Below are positions 2,027 through 19,099 of a stretch of 64,000 bases of DNA, piece after piece. Origin of the DNA: an uncultured Vicinamibacterales bacterium. GTDB taxonomy: Bacteria; Acidobacteriota; Vicinamibacteria; Vicinamibacterales; UBA8438. Position 1 is the first letter of the stretch; every line of letters begins with the position of its first letter. Location of the stretch: positions 5,812,367-5,876,366 of the forward strand of contig OY282382.1 of assembly GCA_958295905.1 (NCBI GenBank), written 5' to 3'. A program made the position numbers and the translations under genes. Under the pieces are notes generated by a model. That model had not been told where the DNA came from. It worked only from the letters and a program-made list of their open reading frames with translations, and ran no database searches.

Positions 2027-2095
2027 TCCTGCGCGAATGCAAGCGCCTCGCCGAGGTGAACTTCCCGATCTCCGTCGTGTCGAAGCACGCGGTGC
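2023..2095 (+). pseudogene. Fragment 1 of a DUF1156 methyltransferase gene (first ~24 codons only)
   Basis: GTG at 2023 overlaps the DUF262 stop (GTGA). VILRECKRLAEVNFPISVVSKHA is ~93% nt-identical to 9786-9855, the start of the intact methylase. Homology stops at ~2095. Confidence 0.8.
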
Positions 2096-2165
2096 GGGAT
2101 CTGAAGAATAGCGCCTTTCACCGCGCACCACCACGGGCTGCTATACCGATGATAGAGTCACAACA
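2096..2165. repeat. ~65-bp segment homologous to 17871-17941 (3' end of an rpn-like gene plus downstream sequence)
   Basis: Shared 21-nt core gcgcaccaccacgggctgcta with flanking similarity. On the minus strand it reads ...TLSSV* versus the Rpn C-terminus ...RLSDWSV*. Confidence 0.6.
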
Positions 2166-2303
2166 AGGACATGCCACAACTTCGAGACCGGCGCACTTTT
2201 CGGCTGCGACGGCGTTCCCAGCAACCCTCCTGGACCGAGACTCTGCGCATGAATCCACATCACGGCCATCACAGCGCGGTCGCGTAGGGCGAAGCGTTCA
2301 CCG

Positions 2304-5300
2304 ATGCCTGCTCCACCAACCCTGACCGAAGGCCAGATCCTCAGCGGTTCTCTCTTCGACGAGCCGATGCGGGTGGAGACCGTCGCGGCGGCGGGTCCCG
2401 GCGGCTGGTCGCTCGGTCTGGTCGGCATGCGGTCCGAGCGCTTCCGGAAGGTCTCGCTCGGCGCGGCCGAACTGGCCGGACTGACGGTGCGCGACAGCGG
2501 CTTCCGGTACGACGGGGACGGCAGGCTGCTGCGGCTGGGAATGCAGGCCCACGCCCTCGGAATCGCCTGGGAGTTCGATCCGTATTTCGGACTGTCGGTC
2601 TCGCGCGTCGACCCGCTGCCGCACCAGTTGGAGGCGGTCTACGACCACCTGCTGAAGCTGGCGCGCGTCCGGTTCCTGCTCGCCGACGACGCCGGGGCCG
2701 GCAAGACGATCATGTCCGGGCTGCTGATCCGCGAGCTGCAGTTGCGCGGTCTGGCCGAGCGCATCCTGATCGTCGCCCCGTCGAACCTCGCGTTCCAGTG
2801 GCAGCGCGAACTACAGGAGAAGTTCGACGAGACGTTCGTCGTGCTGAGAGGCGGCGACCTGCGCGCGCAGTTCGGCGTGAACCAGTGGATGCGGCAGCCG
2901 AAGGTCGTGACCTCGCTCGACCTTGCGAAGCGCGACGACATCCTGCCCGGCCTGCGCCAGGCGCACTGGGACTTGGTCGTCGTGGACGAGGCGCACCGGA
3001 TGTCGGCGCGGGACGACTCGCACAAGAGCCAGCGGTACAAGCTGGGCGAGCTGCTGCGGGATTCGTCCGACCACCTGCTGCTGCTGACCGCGACGCCGCA
3101 CAAGGGCGACCCCGACAACTTCTCGCTCTTCCTCCAGCTTCTCGACCGCGACGCCTACGCCGACGTGCGCTCTATCCGGCAGGCGATGGACGCCGGGCGC
3201 GCCCCGTTCTACCTGCGGCGCACGAAGGAGGCGATGGTCCACTTCCCGGAGCGGGACGCGGAGGGGCGGTGGGTCACGCGGAAGATCTTCACGAAGCGCA
3301 TTCCCCGCACCGTGAACTTCGCCATCGACGGTCCGGAGTTCGAGCTGTACAGCGAGGTGACCCGGTTCGTGAAGCGCCAGAGCGCCCGCGCCGCCGCGGC
3401 CGGCGACGACCGGCGCGCCCGCGCCGTGGGCTTCCTGATGGCGCTGTACCAGCGGCGCCTGACGTCGAGCACGCGGGCCATCCGGCGCAGCCTGTCGAAC
3501 CGCGCCGACCGGTTGGAGCGCGGGCTCGCGCAGGCCGAGGATCTCGCGCGAACCGCGCCGCCGGACATCCCGAGCCCGGACGAACTCGACGAGATGGAGG
3601 ACCGCGACCGCGAACGGCTCGAGCGGTTGCTCGACGCGGTCACGCTGGCCGGGAACGCCGGCCGGGTGCGCGAGGAGATCGCCGAGCTGCGGGCGCTGGC
3701 CGTCAGGGCGCAGCAGGTCGAGCGCGCCGGCGTCGAGGCGAAGCTCGCCAAGCTCGAAGATCTGCTGCGCGGCCAGGGGTTCTTCGACCGGCCGGATCAG
3801 CGGCTGGTGCTCTTCACCGAATTCAAGGACACGCTCGACTACCTCATCGAGAGGCTCGAAACCTGGGGCTTCCGGGTGGCGAGCATTCACGGCGGCATGA
3901 AGCCCGGCGACCGCGACGAGCCGGGCACCCGGCTGCACGCCGAGCAGCAGTTCCGCGACGGCGCGGTGCAGGTGCTCGCGGCGACCGAGGCGGCGGGCGA
4001 AGGAATCAACCTGCAGGTCTCGAACGTCCTCTTCAACTACGACATCCCGTGGAACCCCAACCGCCTCGAGCAGCGCATGGGGCGCATCCACCGTTACGGC
4101 CAGGAGAAGGACTGCCTGATCTTCAACTTCGTCGCCACGAACACCATCGAGGGGCGCGTCCTCCAGCGCCTGCTCGACAAGCTGCAGGAGATTCGCGACG
4201 CGCTCGACGACGACGCGGTGTTCAACGTCGTCGGCGAAGTGCTGCCGGCGGCCCACGTGGAGCGCGTGCTGCGCGACTACTACGCGGGCCGGCTCGGCGA
4301 CGAGGACCTGGAGGAGCGCCTGTTGCGGAACGTCGACGAGGGGCGCTTCCGCAACATCTGCCGGAACGCCCTGGAGGGACTGGCGTCGAAGAAGCTGAAC
4401 CTGGAGATGCTGGTCGAGCGCCGCGCCCGCGCCCGCGAGCGCCGCGTGGTGCCGGAAACCATCGCCCGCTTCCTGCGCGACGCGGCGCCCCTGGTGCCGT
4501 TGAAGCTCGCCTTCGCCGGCAACTTGCCGCACACGTTCGAGCCCGCCCGCACGCCCGCCGCGCTGCGCCGCTACGAGCGCGAGCCCGACTGGCGGCTCCC
4601 GGCGCTGGCGGTCCGATATCCCCGCTGCACCACCGACCGCGACACCGCGCAGCGGCACGCGCTCGAATGGGTGACGCCGGGCCACCCGCTGTTCGAGGCG
4701 CTCCGCCGCCACGCGCGCGAGCAGGCCCTGGAACCACTCGCCCGCGGCGCCACCTTCCACTCGCTGGCGCACGACGCGCCGGTCCGCATCGACTGCTACC
4801 GCGCGCGGGTCGTCGACGGACTCGGGCGCGTCGCGCACGAGACGGTCTTCGCCCTGGCGCTGGCCGGCGACGGCGAGCCGCGGCGGTGCGAACCAAGCGT
4901 GCTCGGCGACCTGACGCCGGCCCCGGTCCCGGACGAGCTGCCGGCGGTCGCGCGCCGGCCCGAACCGACGGCGTGGATGCAGGAGCACGTTCTCCGGCCG
5001 CTTCTCGAGGCGACGCGCGCCGAACGCGTCGCCGAGGCCGGGCGCGTCGCGCAGCACGTGGAGCTCTCGCTGACAGAACTGCTGCAGCGGGCCGACGACG
5101 AGATCGGCCGCGCCGCCGCCGACGTGGAGGCGGGCCGCCAGGGCGCCGAGGGCCGGCTCGCGATGGCCGAAGCGCGGCACGAGGAGCTCTTCGTCCGCCG
5201 CGCGCGCCGCCGGGAGGAACTCGGACGGCAGCAGGCGCTCTCGCTCCAGGCGGTGGAGCGCCTGACCAGCGCGCTGGTCCTCCCGCACCCCGACCGCGGG

Positions 5301-5720
5301 ACCGCCGCGGTGAAGCGCCACCAGCCCGACCCGGCGACCGAGGCGGCGGCGATGCGCGTCGTCGTGGACCACGAGCGGGCCCGGGGGCGGCGCGTCGAGG
5401 ACGTGAGCGCGAAGAACCTCGGCTACGACGTGACCAGCCTCGACCCGGACTCGGGCGATCTGCGCCTCATCGAGGTCAAGGGGCTCGCCGCCCCCACCGG
5501 GACGATTCTGCTGACGCCCAACGAGCGCCGCGTCGCCGAAGACCGCCCCGACTGCTACTGGCTGTACGTCGTCACCGACTGCCGCCGGACCCCGGCGCTC
5601 CAGGAGCCCATCGCGAACCCGGCCCGGTTGCCTTGGCGCGAGGTGACGACGGTGCGGCACTACTATCTGAACGTCGGCGCGATTGACAGCGCGCGAAAGG
5701 AGAACGAGAAGAGGCCATGA
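2304..5720 (+). CDS. SNF2-family helicase with C-terminal DUF3883 / restriction-endonuclease-like domain
   Basis: 1138-aa ORF. Motifs LLADDAGAGKT (I), VVVDEAHRM (II), LLLTATPHKG (III), QRMGRIHRYGQ (VI). C-terminal RGRRVEDVSAKNLGYDVTSLD...IEVKG...CYWLYVV block is typical of DUF3883 helicases. Confidence 0.9.
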   Translation: MPAPPTLTEGQILSGSLFDEPMRVETVAAAGPGGWSLGLVGMRSERFRKVSLGAAELAGLTVRDSGFRYDGDGRLLRLGMQAHALGIAWEFDPYFGLSVSRVDPLPHQLEAVYDHLLKLARVRFLLADDAGAGKTIMSGLLIRELQLRGLAERILIVAPSNLAFQWQRELQEKFDETFVVLRGGDLRAQFGVNQWMRQPKVVTSLDLAKRDDILPGLRQAHWDLVVVDEAHRMSARDDSHKSQRYKLGELLRDSSDHLLLLTATPHKGDPDNFSLFLQLLDRDAYADVRSIRQAMDAGRAPFYLRRTKEAMVHFPERDAEGRWVTRKIFTKRIPRTVNFAIDGPEFELYSEVTRFVKRQSARAAAAGDDRRARAVGFLMALYQRRLTSSTRAIRRSLSNRADRLERGLAQAEDLARTAPPDIPSPDELDEMEDRDRERLERLLDAVTLAGNAGRVREEIAELRALAVRAQQVERAGVEAKLAKLEDLLRGQGFFDRPDQRLVLFTEFKDTLDYLIERLETWGFRVASIHGGMKPGDRDEPGTRLHAEQQFRDGAVQVLAATEAAGEGINLQVSNVLFNYDIPWNPNRLEQRMGRIHRYGQEKDCLIFNFVATNTIEGRVLQRLLDKLQEIRDALDDDAVFNVVGEVLPAAHVERVLRDYYAGRLGDEDLEERLLRNVDEGRFRNICRNALEGLASKKLNLEMLVERRARARERRVVPETIARFLRDAAPLVPLKLAFAGNLPHTFEPARTPAALRRYEREPDWRLPALAVRYPRCTTDRDTAQRHALEWVTPGHPLFEALRRHAREQALEPLARGATFHSLAHDAPVRIDCYRARVVDGLGRVAHETVFALALAGDGEPRRCEPSVLGDLTPAPVPDELPAVARRPEPTAWMQEHVLRPLLEATRAERVAEAGRVAQHVELSLTELLQRADDEIGRAAADVEAGRQGAEGRLAMAEARHEELFVRRARRREELGRQQALSLQAVERLTSALVLPHPDRGTAAVKRHQPDPATEAAAMRVVVDHERARGRRVEDVSAKNLGYDVTSLDPDSGDLRLIEVKGLAAPTGTILLTPNERRVAEDRPDCYWLYVVTDCRRTPALQEPIANPARLPWREVTTVRHYYLNVGAIDSARKENEKRP

Positions 5721-6124
5721 GAACCCACAACTTGTTCATCAGCCACTCTTGGACGTACGCAGATCAGTACGACCGACTTGTAAACCTCTTGTCGGAAAGA
5801 AGCTACTTCAGTTTCAAGAATTATTCAGTCCCGAAGGACGATCCAATTCACAACGTGGGAACGGACGCCCAACTGCGCGAGGCGATCCGCCGCCAGATGG
5901 TTCCATGCGGGGTGGTTCTCATTCTCGCGGGTGTCTATGCCAGCTACAGCAAGTGGATAGACATAGAAATAAAGCTCGCAGAAGGTTTCCAGCAAGGGAA
6001 ACCGATCATCGCCATTGAGCCGTGGGGAAGCCAGCGAACTTCCGCGCGCGTCAAACAAGCGGCCGACCGAATCGTGAAATGGAACACCGAGAGCGTCGTG
6101 AAAGCCATCAGGGAGCTTGCATGA
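5717..6124 (+). CDS. TIR-like domain protein (DUF1863 / ThsB-like)
   Basis: 135-aa ORF. Its ATG overlaps the helicase stop (ATGA). N-terminal NLFISHSWTYADQYDRL and the short alternating strand/helix layout match my memory of TIR-like DUF1863 proteins. Locally lower GC than its neighbours. Confidence 0.65.
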   Translation: MRTHNLFISHSWTYADQYDRLVNLLSERSYFSFKNYSVPKDDPIHNVGTDAQLREAIRRQMVPCGVVLILAGVYASYSKWIDIEIKLAEGFQQGKPIIAIEPWGSQRTSARVKQAADRIVKWNTESVVKAIRELA

Positions 6125-6576
6125 CGAGCAACTCCACGCAAAACGAGCTACTGGAGATTTACAAGCTCCACACGGAGCTCGCCGACCGCGTGAGCCAGCG
6201 ACGAGAGGGAGCCAATCGGCTGTACGTCAGTCTGCTCGTGGGACTGATGGTGTTCGGTGCGACGCTGCTGCGCTACGGTACCGGCGATGTCCCGGCCAAG
6301 ATCGTGCTATGCGCCCTGGGTACCATCGGCGCGTTGCTGTCGGTCTCCTGGTACATCGTCATCCGGTCGTACCGTCAGCTCAACACCGGGAAATTCAAAC
6401 CCCTGCATGAACTTGAGGAAAAGCTGGCCTACCCGTTCTTCACCCGCGAATGGGAGCTGCTGGGCGAGGGCCGGGACCGACGGCGCTACTGGAAGCTGTC
6501 CGTCGTCGAGACCAGCCTGCCGTGGATCTTCTTCGCACTGTTTCTCGGCATGACGATTCTGGCGTTCTTCCAGTGA
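6121..6576 (+). CDS. Small 3-TM membrane protein (candidate effector, SLATT-like layout)
   Basis: Met at 6121 inside ORF 6022-6576, overlapping the TIR-like stop (ATGA). Three hydrophobic helices: LYVSLLVGLMVFGATLL, IVLCALGTIGALLSVSWYIVI, LPWIFFALFLGMTILAFF. Confidence 0.65.
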   Translation: MTSNSTQNELLEIYKLHTELADRVSQRREGANRLYVSLLVGLMVFGATLLRYGTGDVPAKIVLCALGTIGALLSVSWYIVIRSYRQLNTGKFKPLHELEEKLAYPFFTREWELLGEGRDRRRYWKLSVVETSLPWIFFALFLGMTILAFFQ

Positions 6577-6617
6577 AAAGGCGATCATGAGGCGGAAGAC
6601 ATCCGTGCATACCTGCT

Positions 6618-7030
6618 GTGGGGCGGGACTTGCCGATGGTTCGTGAACCGGCGCCGCTCGGGGAGGACCGCGTGAGCCGCAAGGGCGCCGGAGACGACCG
6701 GCAACGTCACGGCGGATCGACCCTCGACCCGCGCACGTTGGACGAGATCATCCGACGCGTCGTTGAAGTTGCGCAACCGGAGCGGATCATCCTGTTCGGG
6801 TCGGCCGCCCGCGGGAAATGACGCGCCGTAGTGACGTGGATCTGCTGATTGTCGCCGATGGCGCGGATGCTCTCGAGCTGATGTCCCGGATCTACGGCCG
6901 CTGGCGGGGCGTAGGCGTCGCGGTCGATGCGCGGGTGGTTTCAGCCGCCGACGTGGCGCGCTACCACGGCAGCCATGCGCTCATCAGGCCGGCTCTGCGT
7001 GAGGGAAGGACCGTGTATGAATCCGCCTGA
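6618..7030 (+). pseudogene. MNT-type nucleotidyltransferase, frameshifted copy
   Basis: ORFs 6618-6821 and 6818-7030 together equal the intact copy at 9342-9740. There is a single G deletion in the run at ~6813-6816 (cgcgggaaatg versus cgcggggaaatg). LFGSAARG...DVDLLIV is the NTase motif. Confidence 0.85.
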
Positions 7031-7075
7031 GCGTCCGCCCCCCGGAGCCGTCGTCCGCTGGGTCGAGGAGCAACG

Positions 7076-7145
7076 GTGATCCCGCGCGAGTGCAAGCGCC
7101 TCGCCGAGGTGGACTTCCCCATCTCCGTCGTGCCGAAGCACGCGG
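7076..7145 (+). pseudogene. Fragment 2 of the DUF1156 methyltransferase gene (first ~23 codons)
   Basis: VIPRECKRLAEVDFPISVVPKHA shows 1 mismatch in 70 nt versus 9786-9855. It runs into unrelated sequence and a TAA a few codons later. Confidence 0.85.
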
Positions 7146-7177
7146 GTCGCATCCGTGTGGGATAATCCGTCGGTCCG

Positions 7178-8551
7178 ATGTTGCTGCGACTGTCCGTCAA
7201 GAACTTCAAGAGCATCCGCGAAGCGCACGTCCGCTTCGGGCCCTTCACCTGCTTCATCGGCCACAACGGCGTCGGCAAGAGCAACCTGTTCGACGCCATC
7301 CATTTCCTCGGCGCGTTGACCGACCGGGACATTGCCGCGGCGGCCGCCGAGGTGAGACGCGCCAGCGACGGAGGCGGCTCGCCGCTTGACCTGGTGTTCG
7401 GCCGCGACCCCGAGCGCCGGATCGAGCTGTGCGCGGACATGGTGGCACCGCCGCGGGTCGAGGACGACTTCGGCCAGACGGCGACACCGAGCACGACGCT
7501 TCTCACCTACACGATCCGGCTGCAGTATCAGCCGCAGTCGGACCGCTTGCTGGTGGAGCACGAGAACCTGACCCACGCCAAGCTGGAGGACTACCGGAAG
7601 TTCGTCGGATTCGACTCGTCGAAGGACTTCAAGAAATCGGTCGCCCTGGGCGTGCGGCGCGGCGGACCGCTGATTTCGACGACCGGGGACCGGATTCGGC
7701 TTCACGGCGACGGCGGAAGCCGGGGGCGGCCCGCGCCGGTCGGCAGGTCGCCGTTGACGGTCGTCGGCGGCACCAACACGTACGACTACCCGACCGTGCT
7801 GGCCGCGAAGCGGGAGATGGCGTCCTGGCGGATACTCCATCTCGAGCCGAGTGCGATGCGGACCCCCGACACCCGCTCCGCACCTCCTCACGTCTCGGCG
7901 TCGGGCGGCCACATGCCGGCTACGCTCCATGCACTGGTTACGAGAAATCCTGACGCGGCCGCTGAAATCCTCTACCGGCTCCGCCAGCTCAACTCGGACA
8001 TCGTCGAACTGGGGGTCCACACCGACGACGTTCGAGACCAGCTTGCGCTGAGGGCGCGTGTCCCCGGCGTGGACAACTGGCTGTACGGCCGCTCCCTTTC
8101 CGACGGCACGCTGCGATACATCGCCCTCGTGCTGATGCTGGTGGACGTCCAGGATTGCGCCGTGCTGTGCATCGAGGAGCCGGAAAACGGCATTCACCCG
8201 TCTCGGGTTTCCCACCTGACGGAGTTGTTGCGGGAATACGCAGTCGACGTCAACGACGCCGTCGGGGCCGACAACCCATTGCGTCAAGTCGTGCTCAATA
8301 CGCATTCTCCCGAGGTGGCTCGGCAGCTTTCCTTCGGCGATCTCGTATTCGTCGAACGGGCGATCACGAAGCGGGAAGGGCCGATCAGCACGTTTCGGCC
8401 GATCGCGGGCACGTGGCGAACCAAACTGCGCAACGGATCGCCGTTGAACGCGGAATCCATGAACCGGCAGGCGGTGGTCGATTTCATCGGCGGCTCGCCG
8501 GTCAACCCGGAGCTCGGTCAGTTGCGGCTCGAGTTCGGATCCGCGAAGTGA
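7178..8551 (+). CDS. ABC/SMC-type ATPase (AAA_15/AAA_21-like)
   Basis: 457-aa ORF. Walker A GHNGVGKSN, Walker B/D-loop LLCIEEPENGIHP, H-loop-like VLNTHSP. Confidence 0.8.
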   Translation: MLLRLSVKNFKSIREAHVRFGPFTCFIGHNGVGKSNLFDAIHFLGALTDRDIAAAAAEVRRASDGGGSPLDLVFGRDPERRIELCADMVAPPRVEDDFGQTATPSTTLLTYTIRLQYQPQSDRLLVEHENLTHAKLEDYRKFVGFDSSKDFKKSVALGVRRGGPLISTTGDRIRLHGDGGSRGRPAPVGRSPLTVVGGTNTYDYPTVLAAKREMASWRILHLEPSAMRTPDTRSAPPHVSASGGHMPATLHALVTRNPDAAAEILYRLRQLNSDIVELGVHTDDVRDQLALRARVPGVDNWLYGRSLSDGTLRYIALVLMLVDVQDCAVLCIEEPENGIHPSRVSHLTELLREYAVDVNDAVGADNPLRQVVLNTHSPEVARQLSFGDLVFVERAITKREGPISTFRPIAGTWRTKLRNGSPLNAESMNRQAVVDFIGGSPVNPELGQLRLEFGSAK

Positions 8552-9147
8552 ACCGCCAGTTGACCTGGGCTGTCGTGGCCGATGGAGGAACGGACCGATT
8601 GCTCGTTCCGGTAATTCAGTGGGCGATACACCGGCTCGATCCGGACGTGGAAATACTCGAGCCCGAATTCAGGAAACGACGCGGCAGCGTCGAGGAGTTC
8701 CTCCGGGACTACGATTCCAACGCCATGGTCGTCTTCGTTCACCGGGATTCGGAGAACCGCCCGCTCGAAGACCGCCTGAGAGAATTCGAACCCGTCACCC
8801 GGCCGAACGTCGTTCCTGTCGTACCGGTTCAGATGTCGGAAGCCTGGATCCTCTTCGACGGATCGGCGGTGGCCAAAGCGGCCGGCTCACCGGCCGCCGC
8901 GGTGCCGGTCCCCCGGATTGCCGAAATAGAGAGCATCGGGAATCCAAAAGAGCGGCTGGACGAGTTGCTCTTCGTTGCCGCCGGATCGCCCGCCGGCCGG
9001 CGCGGCAAGAACTTCAGGCGTTCAATCGCGCATCGCCGCGTGAGTGTCGCCGAGTACATCGCCGACTACAGTCCGCTCGAGAACGTGTCCGCGTTCCAGA
9101 GATTTCAGGCGTCTCTCGCGGCCGGCTATCCGTACACGAGGGAATAG
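8548..9147 (+). CDS. Hypothetical partner of the ATPase; distant DUF4276/TOPRIM-like pattern
   Basis: GTG at 8548 overlaps the ATPase stop (GTGA). The blocks VVADGGTD, VFVHRD, VPVQMSEAWILFD and NPKERLDELL are collinear with the VEGQTE, DFYG, VQRHEFEGLLFS and APSKRI blocks of the clear DUF4276 gene at 21651-22288. Confidence 0.55.
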   Translation: MNRQLTWAVVADGGTDRLLVPVIQWAIHRLDPDVEILEPEFRKRRGSVEEFLRDYDSNAMVVFVHRDSENRPLEDRLREFEPVTRPNVVPVVPVQMSEAWILFDGSAVAKAAGSPAAAVPVPRIAEIESIGNPKERLDELLFVAAGSPAGRRGKNFRRSIAHRRVSVAEYIADYSPLENVSAFQRFQASLAAGYPYTRE

Positions 9148-9220
9148 ACGAAAGCGAGAGACCGGCGCAGAAAGTTGACGGGAAGGACACACGACGGCGC
9201 TTGAGCCCTTGTATTACTGC

Positions 9221-9310
9221 CGGCGCGAGGTGACGAAGGTGCGGCACTACCATCTGGACGTCGGTGCCATGACGGAGCCGATGCGGGGCGCGCAGCAGCC
9301 GCCGAAGTGA
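9221..9310 (+). pseudogene. 3'-terminal remnant of a second DUF3883 helicase gene
   Basis: cggcgcgaggtgacgaaggtgcggcactaccatctggacgtcgg aligns with 5637-5680. It encodes REVTKVRHYHLDVGA versus WREVTTVRHYYLNVGA and ends in TGA. Confidence 0.7.
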
Positions 9311-9341
9311 CGGCGAACAACGCTGAGGCCAAGCTCTGCCG

Positions 9342-9740
9342 ATGGTTCGTGAACCGGCGCCGCTCGGGAAGGACCGCGTGAGCCGCAAGGGCGCCGGAGA
9401 CGACCGGCAACGTCACGGCGGATCGACCCTCGACCCGCGCACGTTGGACGAGATCATCCGGCGTGTCGTTGAAGTTGCGCAACCGGAGCGGATCATCCTG
9501 TTCGGGTCGGCCGCCCGCGGGGAAATGACGCGCCGTAGTGACGTGGATCTGCTGATTGTCGCCGATGGCGCGGATGCTCTCGAGCTGATGTCCCGGATCT
9601 ACGGCCGCTTGCGGGGCGTAGGCGTCGCGGTCGATGCGCTGGTGGTTTCCGCCGCCGACGTGGCGCGCTACCACGACCGCCATACGCTGATCATCAGGCC
9701 GGCTCTGCGTGAGGGAAGGACCGTGTATGAATCCGCCTGA
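9342..9740 (+). CDS. MNT-type nucleotidyltransferase (intact copy)
   Basis: 132-aa ORF. ILFGSAARGEMTRRSDVDLLIV is the minimal NTase motif (GS...DxD). No adjacent HEPN ORF was seen. Confidence 0.8.
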   Translation: MVREPAPLGKDRVSRKGAGDDRQRHGGSTLDPRTLDEIIRRVVEVAQPERIILFGSAARGEMTRRSDVDLLIVADGADALELMSRIYGRLRGVGVAVDALVVSAADVARYHDRHTLIIRPALREGRTVYESA

Positions 9741-9785
9741 GCGTCCGCCCCCCGGAGCCGTCGTCCGCTGGGTCGAGGAGCAACG

Positions 9786-12700
9786 GTGATCCCGCGCGAG
9801 TGCAAGCGCCTCGCCGAGGTGGACTTCCCCATCTCCGTCGTGTCGAAGCACGCGGCGCGGGAGAAGTCGATCCGGCACGGGCATCCGTCGACGCTGCACC
9901 TGTGGTGGGCGCGCCGGCCGCTGGCGTCGAGCCGGGCGGTGCTGCTGGCGCTGCTGCTACCCGATCCGTGCGACGCGCACTGCCCGAAAGCGTTCAGGGC
10001 CGCGGCGCGCCGGATTCTTCTCGGGATGCCCGGGCGTCCGCACGGATGGGCGGACACCATGGACACGGACCTGGGGTTGCGACGGGTCGTGCTGGCGTTC
10101 ATCGGCCGGTTCGCCGACTGGAACAACGCCGCGGATGCGGCGCATCTCAACGCCGGCCGCGCCCTGGTGCAGGCCGCCCACGGCAACGAGGCGCCGCTCG
10201 TCGTGGACCCGTTCGCGGGCGGCGGGTCGATTCCGTTGGAGGCGCTGCGGCTCGGCTGCGAGGCGTTCGCGAGCGATCTGAACCCGGTGGCGTGCCTTAT
10301 CCTGAAGGTGATGCTGGAGGACATCCCGCGTCACGGACCGGGGTTGGCCGACGAGCTGCGCCGGGTGGGCGGAGAAGTCAAGGCGGCGGCGGAGAAGGCA
10401 CTGGCAGACCTCTACCCGCCGGACCCGGACGGCGCCACCCCGATCGCGTACCTGTGGGCGCGGACCGTGCGCTGCGAGGCGCCGAACTGCGGCGCTGAGA
10501 TCCCGCTGATGCGCTCGTTCTGGTTGTGCAAGAAGGCGCGGCGAAAGCGGGCGCTGCGGCCTCACGTCGTGCGGTCCGGGGGCGAGCCGCCGCGGGTCGC
10601 CTTCGAGATCTTCGAGCCCGCAGCCGACCGGGAAGTGGGCGCGGGCACGGTGGCGCGGGCGAAGGCGGCGTGCCCGTGCTGTCACGTCGTCCTGCCGCCC
10701 GAGCGGGTCCGGGCGCAGCTCGCCGCGCAGCGGGGCGGCGCGGACGTGGTGTTCGACGCCGCCGGCCGGCGCATCGGCGGCGCGCGCCTGACGGCGGTGG
10801 TGACGCTCCGACCGGGCGAGAAGGGCCGGCACTACCGGCCGGCGGCCGAGGCGGACTACGCGGCGGTGCGCGCGGCGCAGGCGCGACTGGCGGGGATGCT
10901 CGATGCGTGGGAGCGCGGCGGGAAACAGGGGTTGTGTCCGGTGCCGGACGAGCCGCTGCCGCCGATCGGTACGTTGGGCTTTCGTGTGCAACGCTACGGC
11001 ATGCTCCGATGGGGCGATCTGTTCACGGCGCGACAGAAGGTGGCGTTGGTAGAGTTGGGGAATTGCTTTGCTCTTGCCCCGGGGGATCCCAAGACGGGGA
11101 ATAACAGTTTTGTTCAAATGTTGTCTTGTGGAATCGGCAAACGTGCTGATTACGCGAGTTCGGGAACGAAATGGCATCTAACGTTTGAGAAAACCACGTG
11201 CACGTTCGGCCGACAGGCGATCCCGATGACATGGGATTTCGTTGAACCGATTCCAATCGGTGAAACGTCGGGCGCATTTGGAGCGGGACTTTCCTCTGTT
11301 TACAGTGCCGTCGAGAATCTGACCAAGTCGATTGATTCCAATGGAAAAGCAGGGCAGGTGCAGCAAGATGACGCGACGAACCACGCCCTCCCCGACCAAA
11401 CCGCCGACGTCTGGTTCACCGATCCGCCCTACTACGACGCGATTCCCTACTCGGACCTCTCCGACTTCTTCCTCGTCTGGCTCAAGCGCGCCCTGCCTGG
11501 CCACCCATTGCTGCGCGACCCTTTCGATCCGGACAACCCGCTGTCGCCCAAGACCCGCGAAGCGGTGCAGGACGAGACGAAGACGTGCGACGGGCGCGTC
11601 AAGGACCGCGCGTTCTTCGAGGACACGATGGGCGCCGCCTTCGCCGAGGGCCGCCGCGTCCTGAACGAGGACGGCGTCGGCTCGGTGGTCTTCGCCCACA
11701 AGACCACCGAAGGCTGGGAGGCGCTGCTCGCCGGCATGATCCGCGGCGGCTGGACCATCACCGGTTCCTGGCCGATCGCGACCGAGCGCCCCGGCCGTCT
11801 GCGGTCGCAGGACTCCGCCGCGCTCGCCACCAGCATCCACCTGATCTGTCGCCCCCGCCCCGGCGACGCGCCGGTGGGCGACTGGGCGGACGTGCTGCGC
11901 GCCCTGCCGCCGCGGGTCGGCGAGTGGATGGAGCGCCTGCAGGGCGAGGGCGTCCGCGGCGCCGACCTCGTGTTCGCCTGCATCGGTCCGGCGCTGGAGA
12001 TCTTCAGCCGCCACCCGCGGGTGGAGACGGCGGACGGACGTGAGGTGGGGCTGGCGGCGTATCTCGAAAAGGTGTGGGAGGTCGTCGGCCGCACCGCGCT
12101 GGAGAACGTCCTCGGCGCGGCCGAAGCGCAGGCCCGGAACGGACTCGCCGGCGCGCTGGAGGAGGACGCGCGGCTGACGGCGCTCTTCCTCTGGACGCTC
12201 CAGGCGACCGGCGCCGGAGAGATCCGGGACGCCGGCGACGGCGGGGATGCGCCGGCCGCGGGCGCGAACGGCGACGATGCGCCCGGCGACAAGGCGGGTG
12301 GCTTCTCGCTCGTCTTCGACGTCGTGCGCCGCTTCGCGCAGCCGCTCGGCATCGACCTCCCGAAGTGGGAGAAGCGCACCATCGAGACGAGGAAGGGCGT
12401 GGTCCGGCTGCTGCCGGTGGCCGAGCGGGCGCAGCAGCTCTTCGGCGAAGGCGGGTCGCAGGCGGTCGCCGCATGGATCGAGCACGCGGCGGCCGGCGCC
12501 GGTCCGCTCCAGGGCGCGTTGTTTCCCGACCGCCGGGAAACCGCGGCGGCCGGCGTCCGCGAGCGGCCACCGGGATACGGCGCCGCCGGGGGTCCGGCCG
12601 ACGATCGTGCCGCGGCGGCTTCCGGCGACACGACCTTGGACCGCGTCCACCGCGGGATGCTGCTTCAGGCCGGCGGGCAGACGAACGCGCTGCACGCGCT

Positions 12701-12827
12701 GTTGAAGGCCGAGCTGCAGCGCGGCCCCGACTTCCTGCGCCTGTCGAACGCGCTGTCCGCGCTCTATCCGCGCGGCAGCGAAGAGAAGCGCCTGCTCGAC
12801 GCCATGCTCCTGGCGGTTCCGCGGTAG
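9786..12827 (+). CDS. DUF1156 domain-containing DNA methyltransferase (DPPY, N6A/N4C type) with Zn-ribbon
   Basis: 1013-aa ORF. The N-terminal KRLAEVDFPI...SIRHGHPSTLHLWWARRP matches DUF1156. Motif I is DPFAGGGS and motif IV is TDPPYYD. Cys pairs CEAPNC ... CPCC are present. Confidence 0.9.
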   Translation: MIPRECKRLAEVDFPISVVSKHAAREKSIRHGHPSTLHLWWARRPLASSRAVLLALLLPDPCDAHCPKAFRAAARRILLGMPGRPHGWADTMDTDLGLRRVVLAFIGRFADWNNAADAAHLNAGRALVQAAHGNEAPLVVDPFAGGGSIPLEALRLGCEAFASDLNPVACLILKVMLEDIPRHGPGLADELRRVGGEVKAAAEKALADLYPPDPDGATPIAYLWARTVRCEAPNCGAEIPLMRSFWLCKKARRKRALRPHVVRSGGEPPRVAFEIFEPAADREVGAGTVARAKAACPCCHVVLPPERVRAQLAAQRGGADVVFDAAGRRIGGARLTAVVTLRPGEKGRHYRPAAEADYAAVRAAQARLAGMLDAWERGGKQGLCPVPDEPLPPIGTLGFRVQRYGMLRWGDLFTARQKVALVELGNCFALAPGDPKTGNNSFVQMLSCGIGKRADYASSGTKWHLTFEKTTCTFGRQAIPMTWDFVEPIPIGETSGAFGAGLSSVYSAVENLTKSIDSNGKAGQVQQDDATNHALPDQTADVWFTDPPYYDAIPYSDLSDFFLVWLKRALPGHPLLRDPFDPDNPLSPKTREAVQDETKTCDGRVKDRAFFEDTMGAAFAEGRRVLNEDGVGSVVFAHKTTEGWEALLAGMIRGGWTITGSWPIATERPGRLRSQDSAALATSIHLICRPRPGDAPVGDWADVLRALPPRVGEWMERLQGEGVRGADLVFACIGPALEIFSRHPRVETADGREVGLAAYLEKVWEVVGRTALENVLGAAEAQARNGLAGALEEDARLTALFLWTLQATGAGEIRDAGDGGDAPAAGANGDDAPGDKAGGFSLVFDVVRRFAQPLGIDLPKWEKRTIETRKGVVRLLPVAERAQQLFGEGGSQAVAAWIEHAAAGAGPLQGALFPDRRETAAAGVRERPPGYGAAGGPADDRAAAASGDTTLDRVHRGMLLQAGGQTNALHALLKAELQRGPDFLRLSNALSALYPRGSEEKRLLDAMLLAVPR

Positions 12828-12847
12828 ACGAAGAGGGGGGCGACGTC

Positions 12848-14194
12848 GTGAACCAAGTCACGCTGGAGAACTTTCGTTGCTTCGGGGACCGCCAGCACGC
12901 CCGTCTGGCGCCGCTCACGCTGCTCGTGGGCGAGAACAGCACCGGCAAGACCTCGTTCATGGCGCTGATTCGCGCCCTGTGGGATGCCGCGCACCTGGAA
13001 ACGATTCCGGACTTCAAGGAAGCGCCGTACGATCTGGGCAGCTTCGACGAGATCGCGCACTACCGCGGGGGGAGAGGCGGGCGGGCGGCCGAGTTCGAGG
13101 CGGGATTCGAGGGCGTCCCGGACATCGCGCTCCCGGGCAAGACGCGCAGATCAGCGAACGGAAGATCTCATCGCTTCGAGATTGCGTTCAGTCGCAAGGG
13201 CCCCGCTCCGGTACCGACGAGACGGCGGCTGGAGAGCGGGGACGTTTCCATTACGGAACAGGTTGCGGAAGATCGGTCTCGGGAAATCGGCTTTCGGACC
13301 GCGAACGGCGAATGGTCGTGGCAGGTGTCTGCCGCCGGGTTGCGCGCGGACCGTAACATGATGCCGCACATCATCCTCCAACTGGGGTTGACCGAGCCCA
13401 CGAGCGTCGAGCCGCTCCCGGGTTCTCCACCGCTCACCGACGATGATCGAAAACAGCTCCAACGACTTCTGTTGGGCTTCGATGCGGTTGCCAGACCGAG
13501 GCCGTTCGCCAGCTCCCCGGTGCGCTCCAAGCCGCGGCGAACCTACGATCCGTCCCGCCCGGTCCGGGATCCCGAAGGCGAGACGATCCCGATGTACCTC
13601 TCCACCGCCTTTTTCGAGGACAAGAAGTCGTGGAATACATTGAAAGAGGCGCTGGAGAGGTTCGGACGCAAGGCGGGACTCTTCGACGAAATAGCCGTCA
13701 AGCCGCTGGGAAAGCGAGGCAGCGAGCCTTTCCAGATGCACGTCAGGAAGTTCGGACCCGGCGCGAAGGGGCTGAAGGGGCCGATGCGCAACCTGATCGA
13801 CGTCGGCTACGGCGTGAGCCAGGTGCTGCCGGTCATCACCGAGCTGTTCCGGGACGATGAGACGCCCATGTTCCTGTTGCAACAGCCGGAGGTTCATCTC
13901 CATCCCAGCGCCCAGGCCGCGCTCGGCAGCCTGTTCTGCCAGATCGCCGGCAAGCGACGGCAGCTTGTGATCGAGACACACAGCGACCACCTGCTCGACC
14001 GCGTGCGCATGGACGTGCGCGACGGGAAAACGAAGCTGAAGCCCGACGACGTGTCGATTCTGTTCTTCGAGCGCGTCAACCTCGACGTGAAGATTCATTC
14101 GCTGCGATTCGACGGAGAAGGTAACGTGCTGGGCGCGCCCGCGAGCTATCGCCGCTTCTTCATGGCGGAGACGAACCGGTCACTGGGGTTGTAG
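12848..14194 (+). CDS. ABC-type ATPase with DUF3696-like C-terminus
   Basis: GTG at 12848 in the frame of ORF 12074-14194. Walker A GENSTGKTS, Walker B LLQQPEVHLHP, then IETHSDHLLDRV and a DUF3696-like tail. Confidence 0.8.
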   Translation: MNQVTLENFRCFGDRQHARLAPLTLLVGENSTGKTSFMALIRALWDAAHLETIPDFKEAPYDLGSFDEIAHYRGGRGGRAAEFEAGFEGVPDIALPGKTRRSANGRSHRFEIAFSRKGPAPVPTRRRLESGDVSITEQVAEDRSREIGFRTANGEWSWQVSAAGLRADRNMMPHIILQLGLTEPTSVEPLPGSPPLTDDDRKQLQRLLLGFDAVARPRPFASSPVRSKPRRTYDPSRPVRDPEGETIPMYLSTAFFEDKKSWNTLKEALERFGRKAGLFDEIAVKPLGKRGSEPFQMHVRKFGPGAKGLKGPMRNLIDVGYGVSQVLPVITELFRDDETPMFLLQQPEVHLHPSAQAALGSLFCQIAGKRRQLVIETHSDHLLDRVRMDVRDGKTKLKPDDVSILFFERVNLDVKIHSLRFDGEGNVLGAPASYRRFFMAETNRSLGL

Positions 14195-14195
14195 G

Positions 14196-14669
14196 GTGTG
14201 CGCCATTCTCGACGCCAACGTGGCCGGACAGGTGTTCGGCACAGACCGTCCCGCCGCCGGGCAGGCGTTCTTCGAGTGGATCGACTCGGGCCGCGGACGC
14301 TTGGTGGTCGGCGGCAGGTTGCGGCAAGAACTCGACAGGAACCACGCCTTCAGGGAATGGCGTCGTCAGGCGGTGCTGGCCGGGCGGATCAAGCTCTTGA
14401 ACGATGAGGCGGTGGACGGCAGGGCCAGGCAACTCGAGCAGGACAACGCTTGCCGCTCGGACGATGAGCACGTCGTCGCCGTCGCGCAACTCGGCGGGGC
14501 GCGTTTGCTGTACTCGAACGACGACGCTTTACAGAAGGATTTCGGCAACAAGGATCTGATTGACCGCCCGCGCGGAAAGGTGTACTCGACGCAAAGACAC
14601 GACCACCTGAGGCCGGAGCATCGACGGCTGCTGGCAAACCGCAACCTGTGCGGGACTGGCGGCCAATGA
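14196..14669 (+). CDS. PIN-like domain protein
   Basis: Starts 1 nt after the ATPase stop. The acidic positions ILDANV, SDDEHVVAVA and SNDDAL are spaced as in PIN-fold nucleases. Confidence 0.55.
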   Translation: MCAILDANVAGQVFGTDRPAAGQAFFEWIDSGRGRLVVGGRLRQELDRNHAFREWRRQAVLAGRIKLLNDEAVDGRARQLEQDNACRSDDEHVVAVAQLGGARLLYSNDDALQKDFGNKDLIDRPRGKVYSTQRHDHLRPEHRRLLANRNLCGTGGQ

Positions 14670-14756
14670 GAGCGGAACAGGATCGAGCCCAGAAGCTACC
14701 ACGAAACGCCCGGCCTATCAGCGCCGCACGGACGGGCGCCATCGCCGCCAGCAGGG

Positions 14757-15173
14757 TTATCCTCGACTCCTCTCGAGCCTGAGGGCAGCCAGCAGGAAGT
14801 ACATGGCATAAAGACGGTTTGGATAACGATAACCGCCTCGATCGCCGGGGTCCGGCTCCAGGGCCCCCAGCTTCTTCATGCGTCGCAGGAAGTTGTCCAG
14901 GACCTTGCTTTCCGCGTCCGTCAGATACTCCAGAAGATCCGCTCTCCGGAAGCGCATTTCCAGCGGTTTCCGCTCGGCGATCTTCCGGAGAATCGAGAGA
15001 TAGTGCTTGCTGTAAATGGCTTCGACGATCTGGGGGGCCAGAAATTTTCGTCCGATCACTTCCGCTGCGGCAACGATGCCGCTTACGGTATCGTCCCGCC
15101 TGATCTCCAGGGTCGCGGCGGCGCGCCAGACGGCGTCACCGATCTCGTGCGCCAGAACGGGCAGTCCGCCCGT
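14757..15173 (-). pseudogene. C-terminal part of an ORC/Arch-type AAA ATPase split by an IS
   Basis: (V)TGGLPVLAHEIGD... continues ...MVSFTGG from 16464-17246. The 9-bp duplication encodes TGG. Confidence 0.8.
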
Positions 15174-16463
15174 CACTAGTGTCCCACAATTTTGGCGATT
15201 CTAGGCCCACATCAGCGGCAGTTGGGGGCCGGGAGGGCTGGAAGGACCGGGTGGCGACGGCGTCGTGAAGAGCTCCTGGAGTAGGCGACGTTCGAACACG
15301 TTGAGCTGGAGCACCTGCAGCATCCGGTGAAGGCTCCAACTCACTCGCATGACGAACTTGAGATACGCCAACAGCAAGTACATGCACATCGCCACCCATA
15401 GCTGCGTCATGACCGCGTTCTTCGACCGGCCCACGAACCGCTTCACCTTCAGATGCTGCTTGATCCACTTGAAAAACAGCTCGATCTGCCACCGGGATTT
15501 GTAGATGTCCGCAATCGTCTTGGCCACCCACGTCGTGTTGTTGGTCACGAACACGTACCGGTTCTTCGTCACCGGGTCCTTGTAGACCACCCGCCGCAGC
15601 GGCGCGGCATACGCCTTCCGGCCGCGAGCGCTCGTCAGCTCGATCGTCTCGTCGCTGATGACGCCGGTCCCGCGGCGGACGCCGTGCGTGTCCGTGACCC
15701 GATACCGCACGCCCCGCTTCAGGCGCGTCACGAAGGTCACGCCCTGCGCCTGCAACTGATGGAACCACTTGAAGTCCATATACGCCCGGTCCGCCACGAC
15801 CACGCTGCCGGCCGGAAATATCCAGGTGCGGACGACCGTGACATCGGCGGTCTTGCCTTCGGTCACACTGACGAAGCTCGGTAGATGGCCCGCCTCATCC
15901 AGACCGACGTGCAGCTTGATGGCCGCCTTCGTGCGTCGAAACGTCGCCCACGGGAAGACCGCCAGACATAAATCGATGGTGGACGCATCGACGGCGTACA
16001 ACTTGTTCTTGAATCGAAAGCCGTGCCTCGGCGCGTGCTCCCGGCAGCGGCCCAACAGGCGTTCGAACAGCGCTTCGTAGAGGGTGTACGGCTGTTCGGT
16101 ATTGACCCGGGCCAACGACGAGCGGCTGACCGTCCCCACGCCGAGGTGATAGAGTTTGCGTCCTTGGGCGGCCAGGTTGCTCACGATATCCCGCAGGCTC
16201 TGTCGGCCCGTCAACTGCGCCAAGCCAAGGGCCGCGAACTGCGCCCAGCGGCTCATGACGCGCAACCCCTGACCGCGCTGGTGCCGGCGAGCTTCGGCCT
16301 CGAATTCATGTCTCGGAAGGAACTTGAGAAGCTGCGCGAAGACTGTGTTATGATGAGCCACGGCTTGGATCTCCTGTCTTTTGAATGACTTATGCTACCA
16401 ATCATTCTATCAGACATGGAAGGTTCAAGCCGCCTTCACCTGAAGGTGTGTGGGACAGAAGTG
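15174..16463 (-). mobile_element. IS4-family insertion sequence (1290 bp)
   Basis: Terminal inverted repeats CACTAGTGTCCCACA and CACTTCTGTCCCACA. The 9-bp target duplication tccgcccgt is at 15165-15173 and 16464-16472. Confidence 0.85.
15201..16361 (-). CDS. IS4-family DDE transposase
   Basis: 386-aa ORF. The layout is DUF4372-like N-terminus plus DDE_Tnp_1. YAVDASTIDL, VVADRAY and YKSRWQIELFFKWIKQHL are typical motifs. Confidence 0.9.
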   Translation of the reverse strand: MAHHNTVFAQLLKFLPRHEFEAEARRHQRGQGLRVMSRWAQFAALGLAQLTGRQSLRDIVSNLAAQGRKLYHLGVGTVSRSSLARVNTEQPYTLYEALFERLLGRCREHAPRHGFRFKNKLYAVDASTIDLCLAVFPWATFRRTKAAIKLHVGLDEAGHLPSFVSVTEGKTADVTVVRTWIFPAGSVVVADRAYMDFKWFHQLQAQGVTFVTRLKRGVRYRVTDTHGVRRGTGVISDETIELTSARGRKAYAAPLRRVVYKDPVTKNRYVFVTNNTTWVAKTIADIYKSRWQIELFFKWIKQHLKVKRFVGRSKNAVMTQLWVAMCMYLLLAYLKFVMRVSWSLHRMLQVLQLNVFERRLLQELFTTPSPPGPSSPPGPQLPLMWA

Positions 16464-17246
16464 TCCGCCCGTAAACGAGACCATGCGCTGGACATCGTCC
16501 GTAGAAATTGTCGCGTTGCCGGCCTGAAACGATTGCCGATAGAAATCCGAGACCTCGCCGTCCGACCAGGGCGCAATGTCGATCAACTCGAAGACGCGCG
16601 CCAGCGACGGTTGTTTCGCCAACAGCTCCCGCCGTCTCTCTTCGAGACCAACGACGACTACGCAAAGCTTCGTCGTCTCGTCGGACGTGGCGATCTCGTC
16701 CACGAAACTCTTGAGCCAATTGGCGAACCGTTCGGAACCCGCGAGACCGTTGATGTCGTCCAGGATCAACAGGATGGATTCCCGGCCCGTCCTTTCCGTC
16801 AGTTGCCTGATCAATGACGCGAAGTTGCGTTCCATGGATTCCAGATCGTCACGACGAAGATCAAGCTCCAGCGAGACGCCGAACAGTCCGACCTTGCGGA
16901 CGCGATCGCCGAAAAAGTCCAGCGTGTGCTGGTGCCACGATCGGGAGACGCTCTGTTTCAGAAGGCTGTTGAACGTCTGCCGCAGCATTTCTCTCAGGTC
17001 CTGAACGCCTCCCAGGAAAACGTGACATCCGATGGCGTCGTTGTCTATTTCCACCAAGCGGCGGACGAACGCCGTCAACGAACTTTTGCCGATCCCCCTT
17101 TCACCGCTGACGAAACCAATCCGAAAGCGCCCCCGCGCACTGGCGGCGACCATGCCGCGCAGGCGCTCTGTCTCGGCTGTCCGCCCCATGAATAACTCGA
17201 CGGGCACAAGCTGACCGGGCGTGAACGGACTGGATTCAGGATCCAT
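16464..17246 (-). pseudogene. N-terminal part of an ORC/Arch-type AAA ATPase split by an IS
   Basis: FMGRTAETERL...GFVSGERGIGKSSL (Walker A) and LLILDDIN (Walker B). The reading frame runs into the IS end. Confidence 0.8.
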
Positions 17247-17930
17247 TTATCCGTCTCCGTGAGGTGGTCTCAGTTCTGGACAGTTCGAGGGCTTCGGCAA
17301 TGTATTCCGGTTGCCCGTCACCCCCTCGCGGTCGCCGTCTCCCGCGCAGACCGCCCGTCGCCAAGGTCGGCGCTACTCGTGTTCAAAAGGGGATGCCATC
17401 CCGTTCGGAGAGTCCCTTATTCTTGACGCCTTCCCGATCATCGTGCGCCCCTGTTCCCGCCCCCGGTCCAACCTTGGCACGCCCGCCCGACAACGCGGAT
17501 TGGCCCGATTCCGCCCCGTCGCAGCGCGCGACGCCCGGATTCGCGGCACGGTAGCCCACGCGAGACGAGATCGTCAAGGTCGAACGGCGGGCCCAGGGCG
17601 CACGTCGAGCGGGTTTACTCGTCCAGATACAACCACGAACCCGCCCGGCGTGGTAGACTACTCACGGCTTCCCGGGCAAGGGAACGGAGCGCCCAGAACT
17701 CCCTCTGCCGTAATCGGGTCAGGCGCGCCCGCGGGAAGCCTCTTCCTCATTCCCCCTCGGCGCGGTAGAACGACACGAGCGACGGCGAAGCCGGGCACCC
17801 TCGCCGCCGCGCAGGTCGGCCGCCTGCGCCCGAAACGTCTCGGAGTGCTCGCGCACCGCTGGATACAAGACGCCGCGGTTCGCACCCGCTGGAGAATGGC
17901 ACGCTTTTCGCGGCGCACCACCACGGGCTG

Positions 17931-18914: not shown

Positions 18915-19099
18915 GAATTGCGCCGATCATACCGCGCCAAGGGCGTCCGAACGAACACCGATAGCCAGCGGCCCGCCGCCGGCACACGGATCCGCCAGCG
19001 GCGGGCTCACCGAAAATCTGCGCTCAGGAATCGACACGCCAGCCCTCATGTACTACACTAGCGGGCATGGCGATGGGCACGGTGCGCAACGGGTCGCAG

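Follow-up and report, generated by a model that had tools for sequence, protein, structure and literature searches.

The DNA analysed here is a window of 64,000 nt (referred to as W) from an uncultured Vicinamibacterales bacterium, and the feature under study is a long direct repeat inside a locus that, judging from its genes, is an Hma (helicase-methylase-ATPase) anti-phage system with the arrangement hmaA-[cargo]-hmaB-[cargo]-hmaC. Genes in W were called by Pfam domain search and PADLOC profile matches. The three core genes are all present in one locus and on the forward strand, which also carries the features described below unless stated otherwise. They are hmaA (2304-5720), encoding a SNF2-type helicase with a NOV_C end (PADLOC HmaA, 1e-168; Pfam SNF2-rel_dom, Helicase_C and NOV_C), hmaB (9786-12827), encoding a DUF1156 N6-adenine methylase (PADLOC HmaB, 9e-110; Pfam DUF1156, 5e-22), and hmaC (22401-25214), encoding a DUF499 ATPase (PADLOC HmaC, 1.2e-98; Pfam DUF499, 1e-10). 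Anti-phage activity and host methylation are predicted for this system. The G+C profile separates the embedded modules (60-65%) from the core genes (70-78%). A scan of the forward strand from hmaA to hmaB with a sigma-70 consensus that may not suit this phylum gave neither a promoter-like site nor an intrinsic terminator, which fits, weakly, with co-transcription.

Between hmaA and hmaB, the first cargo consists of a TIR gene (5717-6124) and an 8xMP membrane protein gene (6022-6576), which together cover 5717-6576 at about 60% G+C (Pfam ThsB_TIR, 1e-16; 8xMP, 7e-34). They are followed by the left copy of the repeat (6631-7145, 515 bp), a two-gene cassette, a remnant of an hmaA 3' end and the right copy (9337-9855, 519 bp), which is in direct orientation and starts 2706-2710 bp after the left one. 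The left copy contains a frameshifted MNT (nucleotidyltransferase) gene (6636-7030), the remnant of a HEPN gene tail (7032-7078) and the first 70 nt of hmaB (7076-7145), called stub 2 here. The right copy contains an intact MNT gene (9342-9740), the same HEPN-tail remnant (9742-9789) and the true start of hmaB.

The original prediction, made from the sequence alone, had described the two copies as about 97% identical, and the repeat search and the alignments bore this out. The search returned three abutting segments (6631-6818, 6813-6986 and 6981-7145, matching 9337-9524, 9520-9693 and 9691-9855 at 96-99%), and the pairwise alignment showed a single 515/519-bp unit broken by two indels. A five-way alignment of 519 columns shows 10 mismatches and 4 gap columns between them, which corresponds to 98.1% identity without gaps (97.3% by self-BLAST). 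The left MNT gene has lost one nucleotide in a G-run (CGCGGGG to CGCGGG) at codon 60, resulting in two open reading frames (ORFs; 6618-6821 and 6818-7030), and a further 3 nt are missing, in frame, from the left copy. The alignment and the ORFs thus agree with the claim that a 1-nt deletion kills the left MNT, which is accompanied by only a methylase stub, and that the right copy is intact. In the five-way alignment, 6 substitutions and 2 indels are unique to the left copy and 3 substitutions to the right one. The MNT copies differ by 3 synonymous and 6 non-synonymous changes, and five of the latter are downstream of the frameshift. The right copy is the working unit (orphan MNT, HEPN-tail remnant and hmaB start), and the left copy is a duplicate in decay.

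The predicted content of the repeat was an MNT gene, a 46-bp spacer and about 23 methylase codons. This content was recovered (70 nt of hmaB, that is, 23.3 codons), but the spacer measures 45 nt. The further proposal that the repeated unit begins with a helicase 3' end does not hold literally: the left MNT follows the 8xMP gene and 50 nt of unique sequence, with no helicase end. The junction region (6577-6630) starts with AAAGGCGATCATGA, which is common to the close relative L083 (L-numbers denote other loci retrieved for comparison), where its ATGA begins an hmaB stub; in W it is followed by the unique stretch, termed X (6581-6630, about 46-50 nt).

The intact MNT gene encodes a 132-aa nucleotidyltransferase (Pfam Polbeta, 1.7e-10; NTP_transf_2, 3.9e-10). 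In the Hma loci L006, L022, L054 and L066, a HEPN gene (PF05168, 9.6e-26) comes after MNT, and its stop codon overlaps the start of hmaB. The MNT-hmaB spacer of W, translated in the HEPN frame, ends in AVVRWVEEQR before a stop and matches HEPN C-termini ending in VVRWAEENL; therefore, it is the last 10 or so codons of a deleted HEPN gene. The MNT of W is thus the orphan of an MNT-HEPN pair; W holds no adjacent MNT and HEPN genes, whereas the pair is intact in other Hma loci. The single MNT copy of the relative L085 is frameshifted too, at a different site from the left copy of W. As the orphan of such a pair, the MNT gene would tolerate inactivation.

The cassette enclosed by the two copies consists of HEC-01A (7178-8551), encoding an ABC-type ATPase of the AAA_21/AAA_15 type (PADLOC HEC-01A, 3.6e-75; Pfam AAA_21, 4e-26), and HEC-01B (8548-9147), encoding its partner protein (PADLOC HEC-01B, 2.3e-16), with a 4-nt overlap between both genes (8548-8551). 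HEC stands for Hma-embedded candidate, and HEC-01 is an ABC ATPase with a TOPRIM-like partner that gave no protection against the phages assayed (Payne et al., bioRxiv 10.1101/2024.01.29.577857). According to the profiles, W has both the ATPase and the partner embedded in an Hma locus; HEC-01B has no Pfam match, so the TOPRIM-like label rests on the literature. The ATPase, its partner and a helicase 3' remnant had been placed between the copies by the original prediction, and all three are there. That the locus is Hma with a known class of embedded cassette had been missed.

HEC-01 is also found elsewhere. HEC-01A homologues with 60-87% identity are located outside Hma loci, and the homology of W to an 84%-identical HEC-01 pair in two non-Hma loci (L081 and L082) spans 7190-9140 only, that is, the two genes. 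A metagenome scan with HEC-01A gave relatives of 38-81%, with the pairs in L086-L100 mostly outside Hma loci, and HEC-01B adjoins HEC-01A in all of L081-L100. No HEC-01A relative above 40% identity was found in the plasmid collection. Exact-match look-ups of the MNT, HEC-01A and GmrSD proteins of W gave no record. Since the homology is limited to the pair and the pair is found outside Hma loci, HEC-01 is an autonomous two-gene module.

On its left side, the cassette is joined directly to stub 2. The 32 nt upstream of HEC-01A (7146-7177) follow hmaB nt 70, and the joint, in which AAGCACGCGG is followed by GTCGCATCC, is identical in W and in the relatives L084 and L085. The joint is illegitimate, as its microhomology is 1-2 nt at most. 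Stub 2 forms a 29-codon ORF (7076-7165, TAA at 7163-7165) that ends 12 nt before the HEC-01A ATG at 7178. On its right side, the cassette is followed by the last 29 or so codons and the stop of an hmaA gene of a different allele (9222-9310), also present in L084 and L085. Its DNA at 9222-9270 is 90% identical to 5635-5683 in the resident hmaA, and its peptide RREVTKVRHYHLDVGAMTEPMRGAQQPPK, which runs to the stop, can be compared with the resident end WREVTTVRHYYLNVGAIDSARKENEKRP. This remnant is more diverged than the MNT repeat (5/49 vs 10/515 mismatches, Fisher p = 0.006), so its source is either a separate allele of hmaA or an earlier event.

A third copy of the hmaB start, stub 1, lies upstream of hmaA (2023-2099, 77 nt) and was detected by the repeat search and self-BLAST with 93.5% identity to the true start. 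Its beginning overlaps the stop codon of a GmrSD/Schlafen-like gene (29-2026), and at 2099/2100 it is joined to the hmaA upstream region, in which the homology to L085 begins at W 2103. This suggests that the start of W is preceded by a further Hma unit in truncated form, or by a "slot 0". The equivalent place in L084 and L085 is taken by a decayed copy of hmaA and an AAA_21 gene. Besides, a direct repeat of about 50 nt (84%) connects 2101-2149, just after stub 1, with 17889-17939, at the 3' end of a YhgA-like gene, and a part of it recurs in L084 (3854-3894); it could be an element end or an island boundary. The original prediction had overlooked this third hmaB start, as well as the identity of the spacer as a HEPN tail, the different allele at the hmaA end and the hmaC fragments at 20220-20447 described below.

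The three closest relatives (L083-L085) were reached through the HEC-01A protein cluster; they are contigs of metagenome assemblies, and their DNA is 95-98% identical to that of W. No genome of the same species is present in the species-representative collection, where the top hmaB match has 76% aa identity and belongs to Vicinamibacterales metagenome-assembled genomes. In L084 and L085 the order is hmaA, Z, hmaB stub (70 nt), HEC-01A, HEC-01B, hmaA remnant, MNT and hmaB. Z is a stretch of 743 nt containing two ORFs, one weakly PIN-like and one of 64 aa, located where W has TIR, 8xMP, X and the frameshifted MNT. In L083 the order is hmaA, TIR, 8xMP, a different hmaB stub of about 32 nt that starts 10 nt past the 8xMP stop, 95 nt of other sequence (Y), the HEC-01A upstream sequence and HEC-01A. 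A 704-bp deletion in L083 (W 8594-9297) drops HEC-01B and most of the hmaA remnant, and MNT and hmaB come next; its joint (L083 11340-11470) lies at a short AG/TGACGG microhomology and leaves HEC-01A alone. BLAST of Y against all fetched loci was uninformative; by its position, it can be read as additional native upstream sequence of the cassette, placed behind a different stub. Since the stub differs and 95 nt more of upstream sequence are present, the clade contains no fewer than two independent illegitimate joints of the cassette to an hmaB start. None of L083-L085 has a second MNT copy.

Thus, the cargo between the ends of hmaA (95-98%) and hmaB differs among W, L083 and L084/L085, while the flanks are kept. 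These data are in line with the earlier idea of recombination between variant copies of one system, given the divergence of the hmaA remnant and the presence of the same cassette in different surroundings in three relatives. In addition, the centre of hmaB (10944-11893) is hypervariable among W, L084 and L085, with 40-125 mismatches per 200 nt vs 2-8 in its flanks, and its breakpoints vary by pair in a sliding comparison of these three loci; it looks like a swapped target-recognition region.

Two switches in divergence delimit the part of W that is peculiar to it. The hmaA gene is about 1% diverged from L084 and L085 over 3.3 kb, but from about 5628 (93 nt before the stop) the alignments show an allele that differs from all three relatives, whose tails stay alike where W diverges. 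The second switch is inside stub 2. Compared with L085, this stub has 9 mismatches in its first 27 positions and none in its last 43 (Fisher p = 7e-5); the corresponding values for L084 are 8/27 and 2/43 (p = 0.01). The first 27 nt are those of the true hmaB start of W, and the sole difference between stub and true start is C instead of T at nt 58, with the C common to the L085 stub. Because the 5' part resembles the true hmaB and nt 58 resembles the L085 stub, a crossover would lie within nt 27-58 of the stub. Both switches are consistent with homologous crossovers, and the sequence from about 5628 to about 7110 (hmaA tail, TIR, 8xMP, X, MNT, HEPN tail and hmaB start) looks like one imported block. 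As for the joint between stub and HEC-01, it is inherited, being common to W, L084 and L085 with different upstream cargo.

RecA-dependent recombination between direct repeats deletes the intervening DNA, and the two copies may recombine in this way. A crossover between them would remove 2706-2710 bp (the cassette with the hmaA remnant, plus one copy) and leave helicase, TIR, 8xMP, MNT and methylase. The original prediction of an exact excision that restores this operon is right by geometry, and hmaB would be intact always; MNT, however, would be intact only if the crossover occurs left of the frameshift, in a part that makes up about 35% of the repeat. Neither the relatives nor the metagenome scans showed the excised configuration; one of these scans used the exact 39-nt MNT-hmaB spacer pattern and gave no match. 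The comparison with related assemblies that had been proposed showed other arrangements instead, since L083-L085 are rearranged otherwise and L001 has a different gene order. Regarding the suggested heterogeneity of the locus, it does exist among close relatives, where the surroundings of the cassette differ, but not in the form of an excised variant.

Similar scars are present in other Hma loci. Self-comparison of 80 Hma loci from other species, followed by a strict count, gave 22 scars in 16 loci. All 22 are direct (binomial p = 5e-7) and their polarity is uniform: the 14 scars located upstream of their gene are 5' ends, and the 8 located downstream are 3' ends. They comprise hmaB 5' stubs (L001, L013, L015, L019, L024, L044 and L057), hmaA 3' remnants (L009, L051, L061 and L072), hmaB 3' remnants bracketing ATPase-PIN cargo (L009, L026 and L030) and hmaC 5' stubs (L022 and L072), so that scars are found at all four core-gene ends. 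The hmaB stubs end at nt 32, 43, 51, 62, 63, 70, 77, 109, 112, 121 or 235, and internally deleted gene remnants occur among the stubs (L001, L057 and L084). Stub identity to the resident gene is 78-100%; most stubs would come from other alleles, as their identity is mostly 79-93%.

Two side observations concern the same kind of feature. In L020 (6377-13202), from Gemmatimonadota, hmaB occurs as two tandem genes with 88-90% identity, of which the first carries a frameshift, and this may be an early stage of the decay of displaced copies that ends in short stubs. In W itself, self-BLAST detected hmaC fragments at 20220-20447 (forward strand; aa about 166-212 and 355-385), which are 87% and 92% identical to 22898-23035 and 23465-23553, respectively. 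They are scars of the same type in the hmaB-hmaC slot, upstream of the embedded gene 20528-22288.

Taking these results together, the repeat is most probably (a probability of roughly 0.8-0.9) a recombination scar in an Hma embedding slot, left behind when cassettes were exchanged as modules, and it would serve no dedicated function. As for how it arose, a history in two steps can be proposed, with about even odds of being correct in its details. An older event that combined a homologous joint with an illegitimate one would have set HEC-01 before a unit made of hmaA tail, MNT and hmaB, leaving the 70-nt stub of the displaced hmaB start. A later homologous exchange, with crossovers in the hmaA 3' end (about 5628) and within nt 27-58 of the stub, would have imported TIR, 8xMP, X, MNT with the HEPN tail and the hmaB start from a sister allele, which would create the second MNT copy. 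An equivalent wording is that the stub-bracketed cassette was integrated by "ends-in" or Campbell-type recombination into an MNT-hmaB locus. The MNT gene would have lost its HEPN partner earlier, and the redundant left copy would then have gained the frameshift, the codon deletion and mostly non-synonymous changes. In this process, the stubs could act as portable homology arms, with cassettes added or swapped by homologous recombination alone.

Several points weigh against this interpretation. The position of the crossover in the stub rests on few diagnostic sites, and the donor allele (hmaA-TIR-8xMP-X-MNT-hmaB) was not found. For X, BLAST of 6577-6635 against all fetched loci was uninformative. 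The four genomes do not polarise the order of events, which could run from the W type to the L084 type or in reverse. Furthermore, the five-way alignment shows that both W copies share a CGG insertion and 3 substitutions absent from L083-L085; because of this, the donor would be a sister allele of the same lineage or an intragenomic copy, or gene conversion could have occurred. Finally, the frameshift of the left copy is in a short G-run, where a sequencing error is conceivable; real decay is nevertheless favoured, because all but one of the six non-synonymous changes come after this site.

The shared insertion and substitutions are also what would be expected if no foreign allele had taken part. 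An unequal sister-chromatid exchange or a gap repair between the stub and the true hmaB start could have duplicated MNT and the first 70 nt of hmaB, and the hybrid stub, with a 5' part like the true hmaB and a 3' part like the L085 stub, is the exact product of an unequal crossover. Such an event predicts, however, an hmaA remnant and MNT before the hybrid stub, where W has 8xMP, ATGA and X, the latter matching nothing else. Moreover, W is unlike L084 and L085 in its hmaA tail and TIR-8xMP, so one or more additional imports would be needed in any case, and the explanation has to add a later deletion or replacement of the upstream unit. It is hence rather improbable, although it stands above the other alternatives. 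A simple tandem duplication in situ was rejected as the whole story, as the hmaA remnant does not belong to the same allele as the hmaA tail. Somewhat less probable still is that the stub is kept as useful, providing the hmaB ribosome-binding site and start as a 29-codon leader ORF that couples the translation of the cassette to the operon. The stub ORF ends just before the HEC-01A start, it is kept in W, L084 and L085, and the forward strand is devoid of promoter- or terminator-like sites from hmaA to hmaB. On the other hand, L083 has HEC-01A behind a quite different upstream sequence and the HEC-01 homologues outside Hma have no such leader. A role of this kind is compatible with the origin of the stub as a scar.

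An assembly artefact, in which the haplotypes TIR-8xMP-MNT-hmaB and HEC-01-hmaA remnant-MNT-hmaB were concatenated or the repeat was mis-resolved, might be considered given that the relatives are metagenome assemblies and that the left junction (8xMP, X and frameshifted MNT) is seen only in W. Nonetheless, the stub/HEC-01 joint occurs in two more contigs from two different samples, the copies are not identical (10 substitutions and 2 indels), like scars occur in 16 of 80 independent genomes, and the sequence shared at the would-be joint (43-70 nt) is presumably too short to mislead a long-read assembler. This makes an artefact very improbable, and an assembly duplication was rejected since the key junction recurs in independent assemblies. 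Lower again, and close to negligible, is the probability of a site-specific, integron-like cassette system with an attachment site in the hmaB 5' end. The two stubs of W end within 7 nt of each other (70 and 77), and the hmaB stubs of other loci are also short, ending at 32-235 nt. Against this, the end points vary, some stubs are internally deleted and scars occur at all four core-gene ends. Besides, no inverted repeat of at least 40 nt was found in 1-20000, and the scanned genes include no integrase, the only transposases being those at 15201-16361 (insertion sequence) and 17931-18914 (YhgA-like), on the other strand. An integron-like mechanism was consequently rejected on its varying junctions and the lack of a recombinase and of inverted repeats.

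The remaining cargo of the locus belongs to known types. The GmrSD/Schlafen-like gene upstream of stub 1 is of the HEC-05 type (PADLOC HEC-05, 1.4e-25; Pfam GmrSD_N, 5e-17, and SLFN_AlbA_2, 4e-16). The hmaB-hmaC slot begins with an ABC ATPase gene (12842-14194) and a PIN gene (14196-14669), covering 12842-14669 (Pfam AAA_15 and PIN; PADLOC NsnB, 8e-42, and HEC-03B, 5e-29). The same slot contains, at 20528-22288, a fused gene of the HEC-01 type with an ABC ATPase and a DUF4276 part (PADLOC HEC-01A, 2.4e-98, and HEC-01B, 8e-42; Pfam AAA_21 and DUF4276). This is a single ORF of 586 aa with HEC-01A at the N-terminus and HEC-01B/DUF4276 at the C-terminus, which are two genes in relatives such as L006; it is apparently a second HEC-01-type unit, fused in W.

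Regarding mobile elements, an IS-type DDE transposase gene (15201-16361, reverse strand; DUF4372 and DDE_Tnp_1) adjoins a STAND/AAA_16 ATPase gene on the same strand (16425-17246), which was probably truncated by this element, as the protein has 273 aa in W vs 396 aa in L084. The YhgA-like (Transposase_31) gene at 17931-18914 is on the strand opposite to the slot. Farther downstream, a Tn5-like transposase with an N-terminal Druantia DruA domain (PF14236) is encoded at 29540-31885 on the reverse strand, and this architecture occurs twice in L081 (503-2119 and 13172-15430), next to the HEC-01 pair that is not embedded in Hma.

Embedding inside Hma, BREX, DISARM and type I restriction-modification operons serves the discovery of defence systems, and the scars hint at how Hma loci gain and lose embedded defence genes. 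In W and its three relatives, the exchange would be anchored in the last 90 or so nt of hmaA and the first 70 or so nt of hmaB, and the displaced gene ends persist as direct-repeat scars able to mediate later loss or exchange; the repeat thus predicts an unstable HEC-01 cassette. A broader possibility, still tentative and much less likely than the scar origin itself, is that the ends of the Hma core genes are general docking sites, that each imprecise insertion leaves a stub as an extra docking site, and that a bracketed cassette becomes a recombinase-free mobile unit. If so, the cassette could leave as a circle or arrive as an ends-in fragment, and homologous recombination alone would suffice for its insertion into any related Hma locus, which would explain the embedded genes in 60% of them. 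The same stub/HEC-01 joint in different contexts and the 22 direct, polar scars fit this idea without proving it.

As regards known systems, the toxin-antitoxin pairs of the MNT-HEPN (MntA/HepT) type resemble W in the domain matches of its MNT, and intact pairs abut hmaB in the four loci mentioned above; W differs in that its HEPN is down to about 10 codons and in the frameshifted MNT of its left copy, shared as a defect with L085. Homology-facilitated illegitimate recombination was reportedly described by de Vries and Wackernagel in 2002. W shares with this process, and with insertion-duplication recombination, one homologous joint and one without homology, as well as a target duplication that flanks the insert. 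However, the illegitimate joint of W is inside the homologous segment, and its mechanism is deduced from scars only.

In Neisseria, the minimal mobile elements (Saunders & Snyder 2002; Snyder et al. 2007; PMC3787668) consist of a variable cassette that is swapped through homologous recombination in the conserved genes on either side of it. The slot of the W clade is alike, with a variable cassette between conserved flanks that differs among the closest relatives, but its flanks are the ends of defence core genes in one operon, and the proposed exchanges would leave partial duplications, the stubs, as additional docking points. We know of no natural transformation in the organism of W.

The Hma family, HEC-01 and embedding are already known, and this locus is not a new kind of system. 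Genes embedded between hma genes were reported in 62.7% of 1485 Hma systems, in a survey that excluded loci with duplicated or pseudogenised hma genes; the word "recombination" is absent from that paper, where the significance of embedding "remains to be explored" (Payne et al., bioRxiv 10.1101/2024.01.29.577857). This filter, together with the lack of a discussion of recombination, would be why such scars are undescribed there, and surveys that drop loci with duplicated or pseudogenised core genes also drop evidence on the mechanism. W agrees with the described Hma systems in having hmaA, hmaB and hmaC on one strand and co-oriented cargo (HEC-01, HEC-05, an HEC-03-like ATPase with PIN, and TIR), and it differs from them in its three hmaB starts, its hmaA tail remnant and its hmaC fragments.

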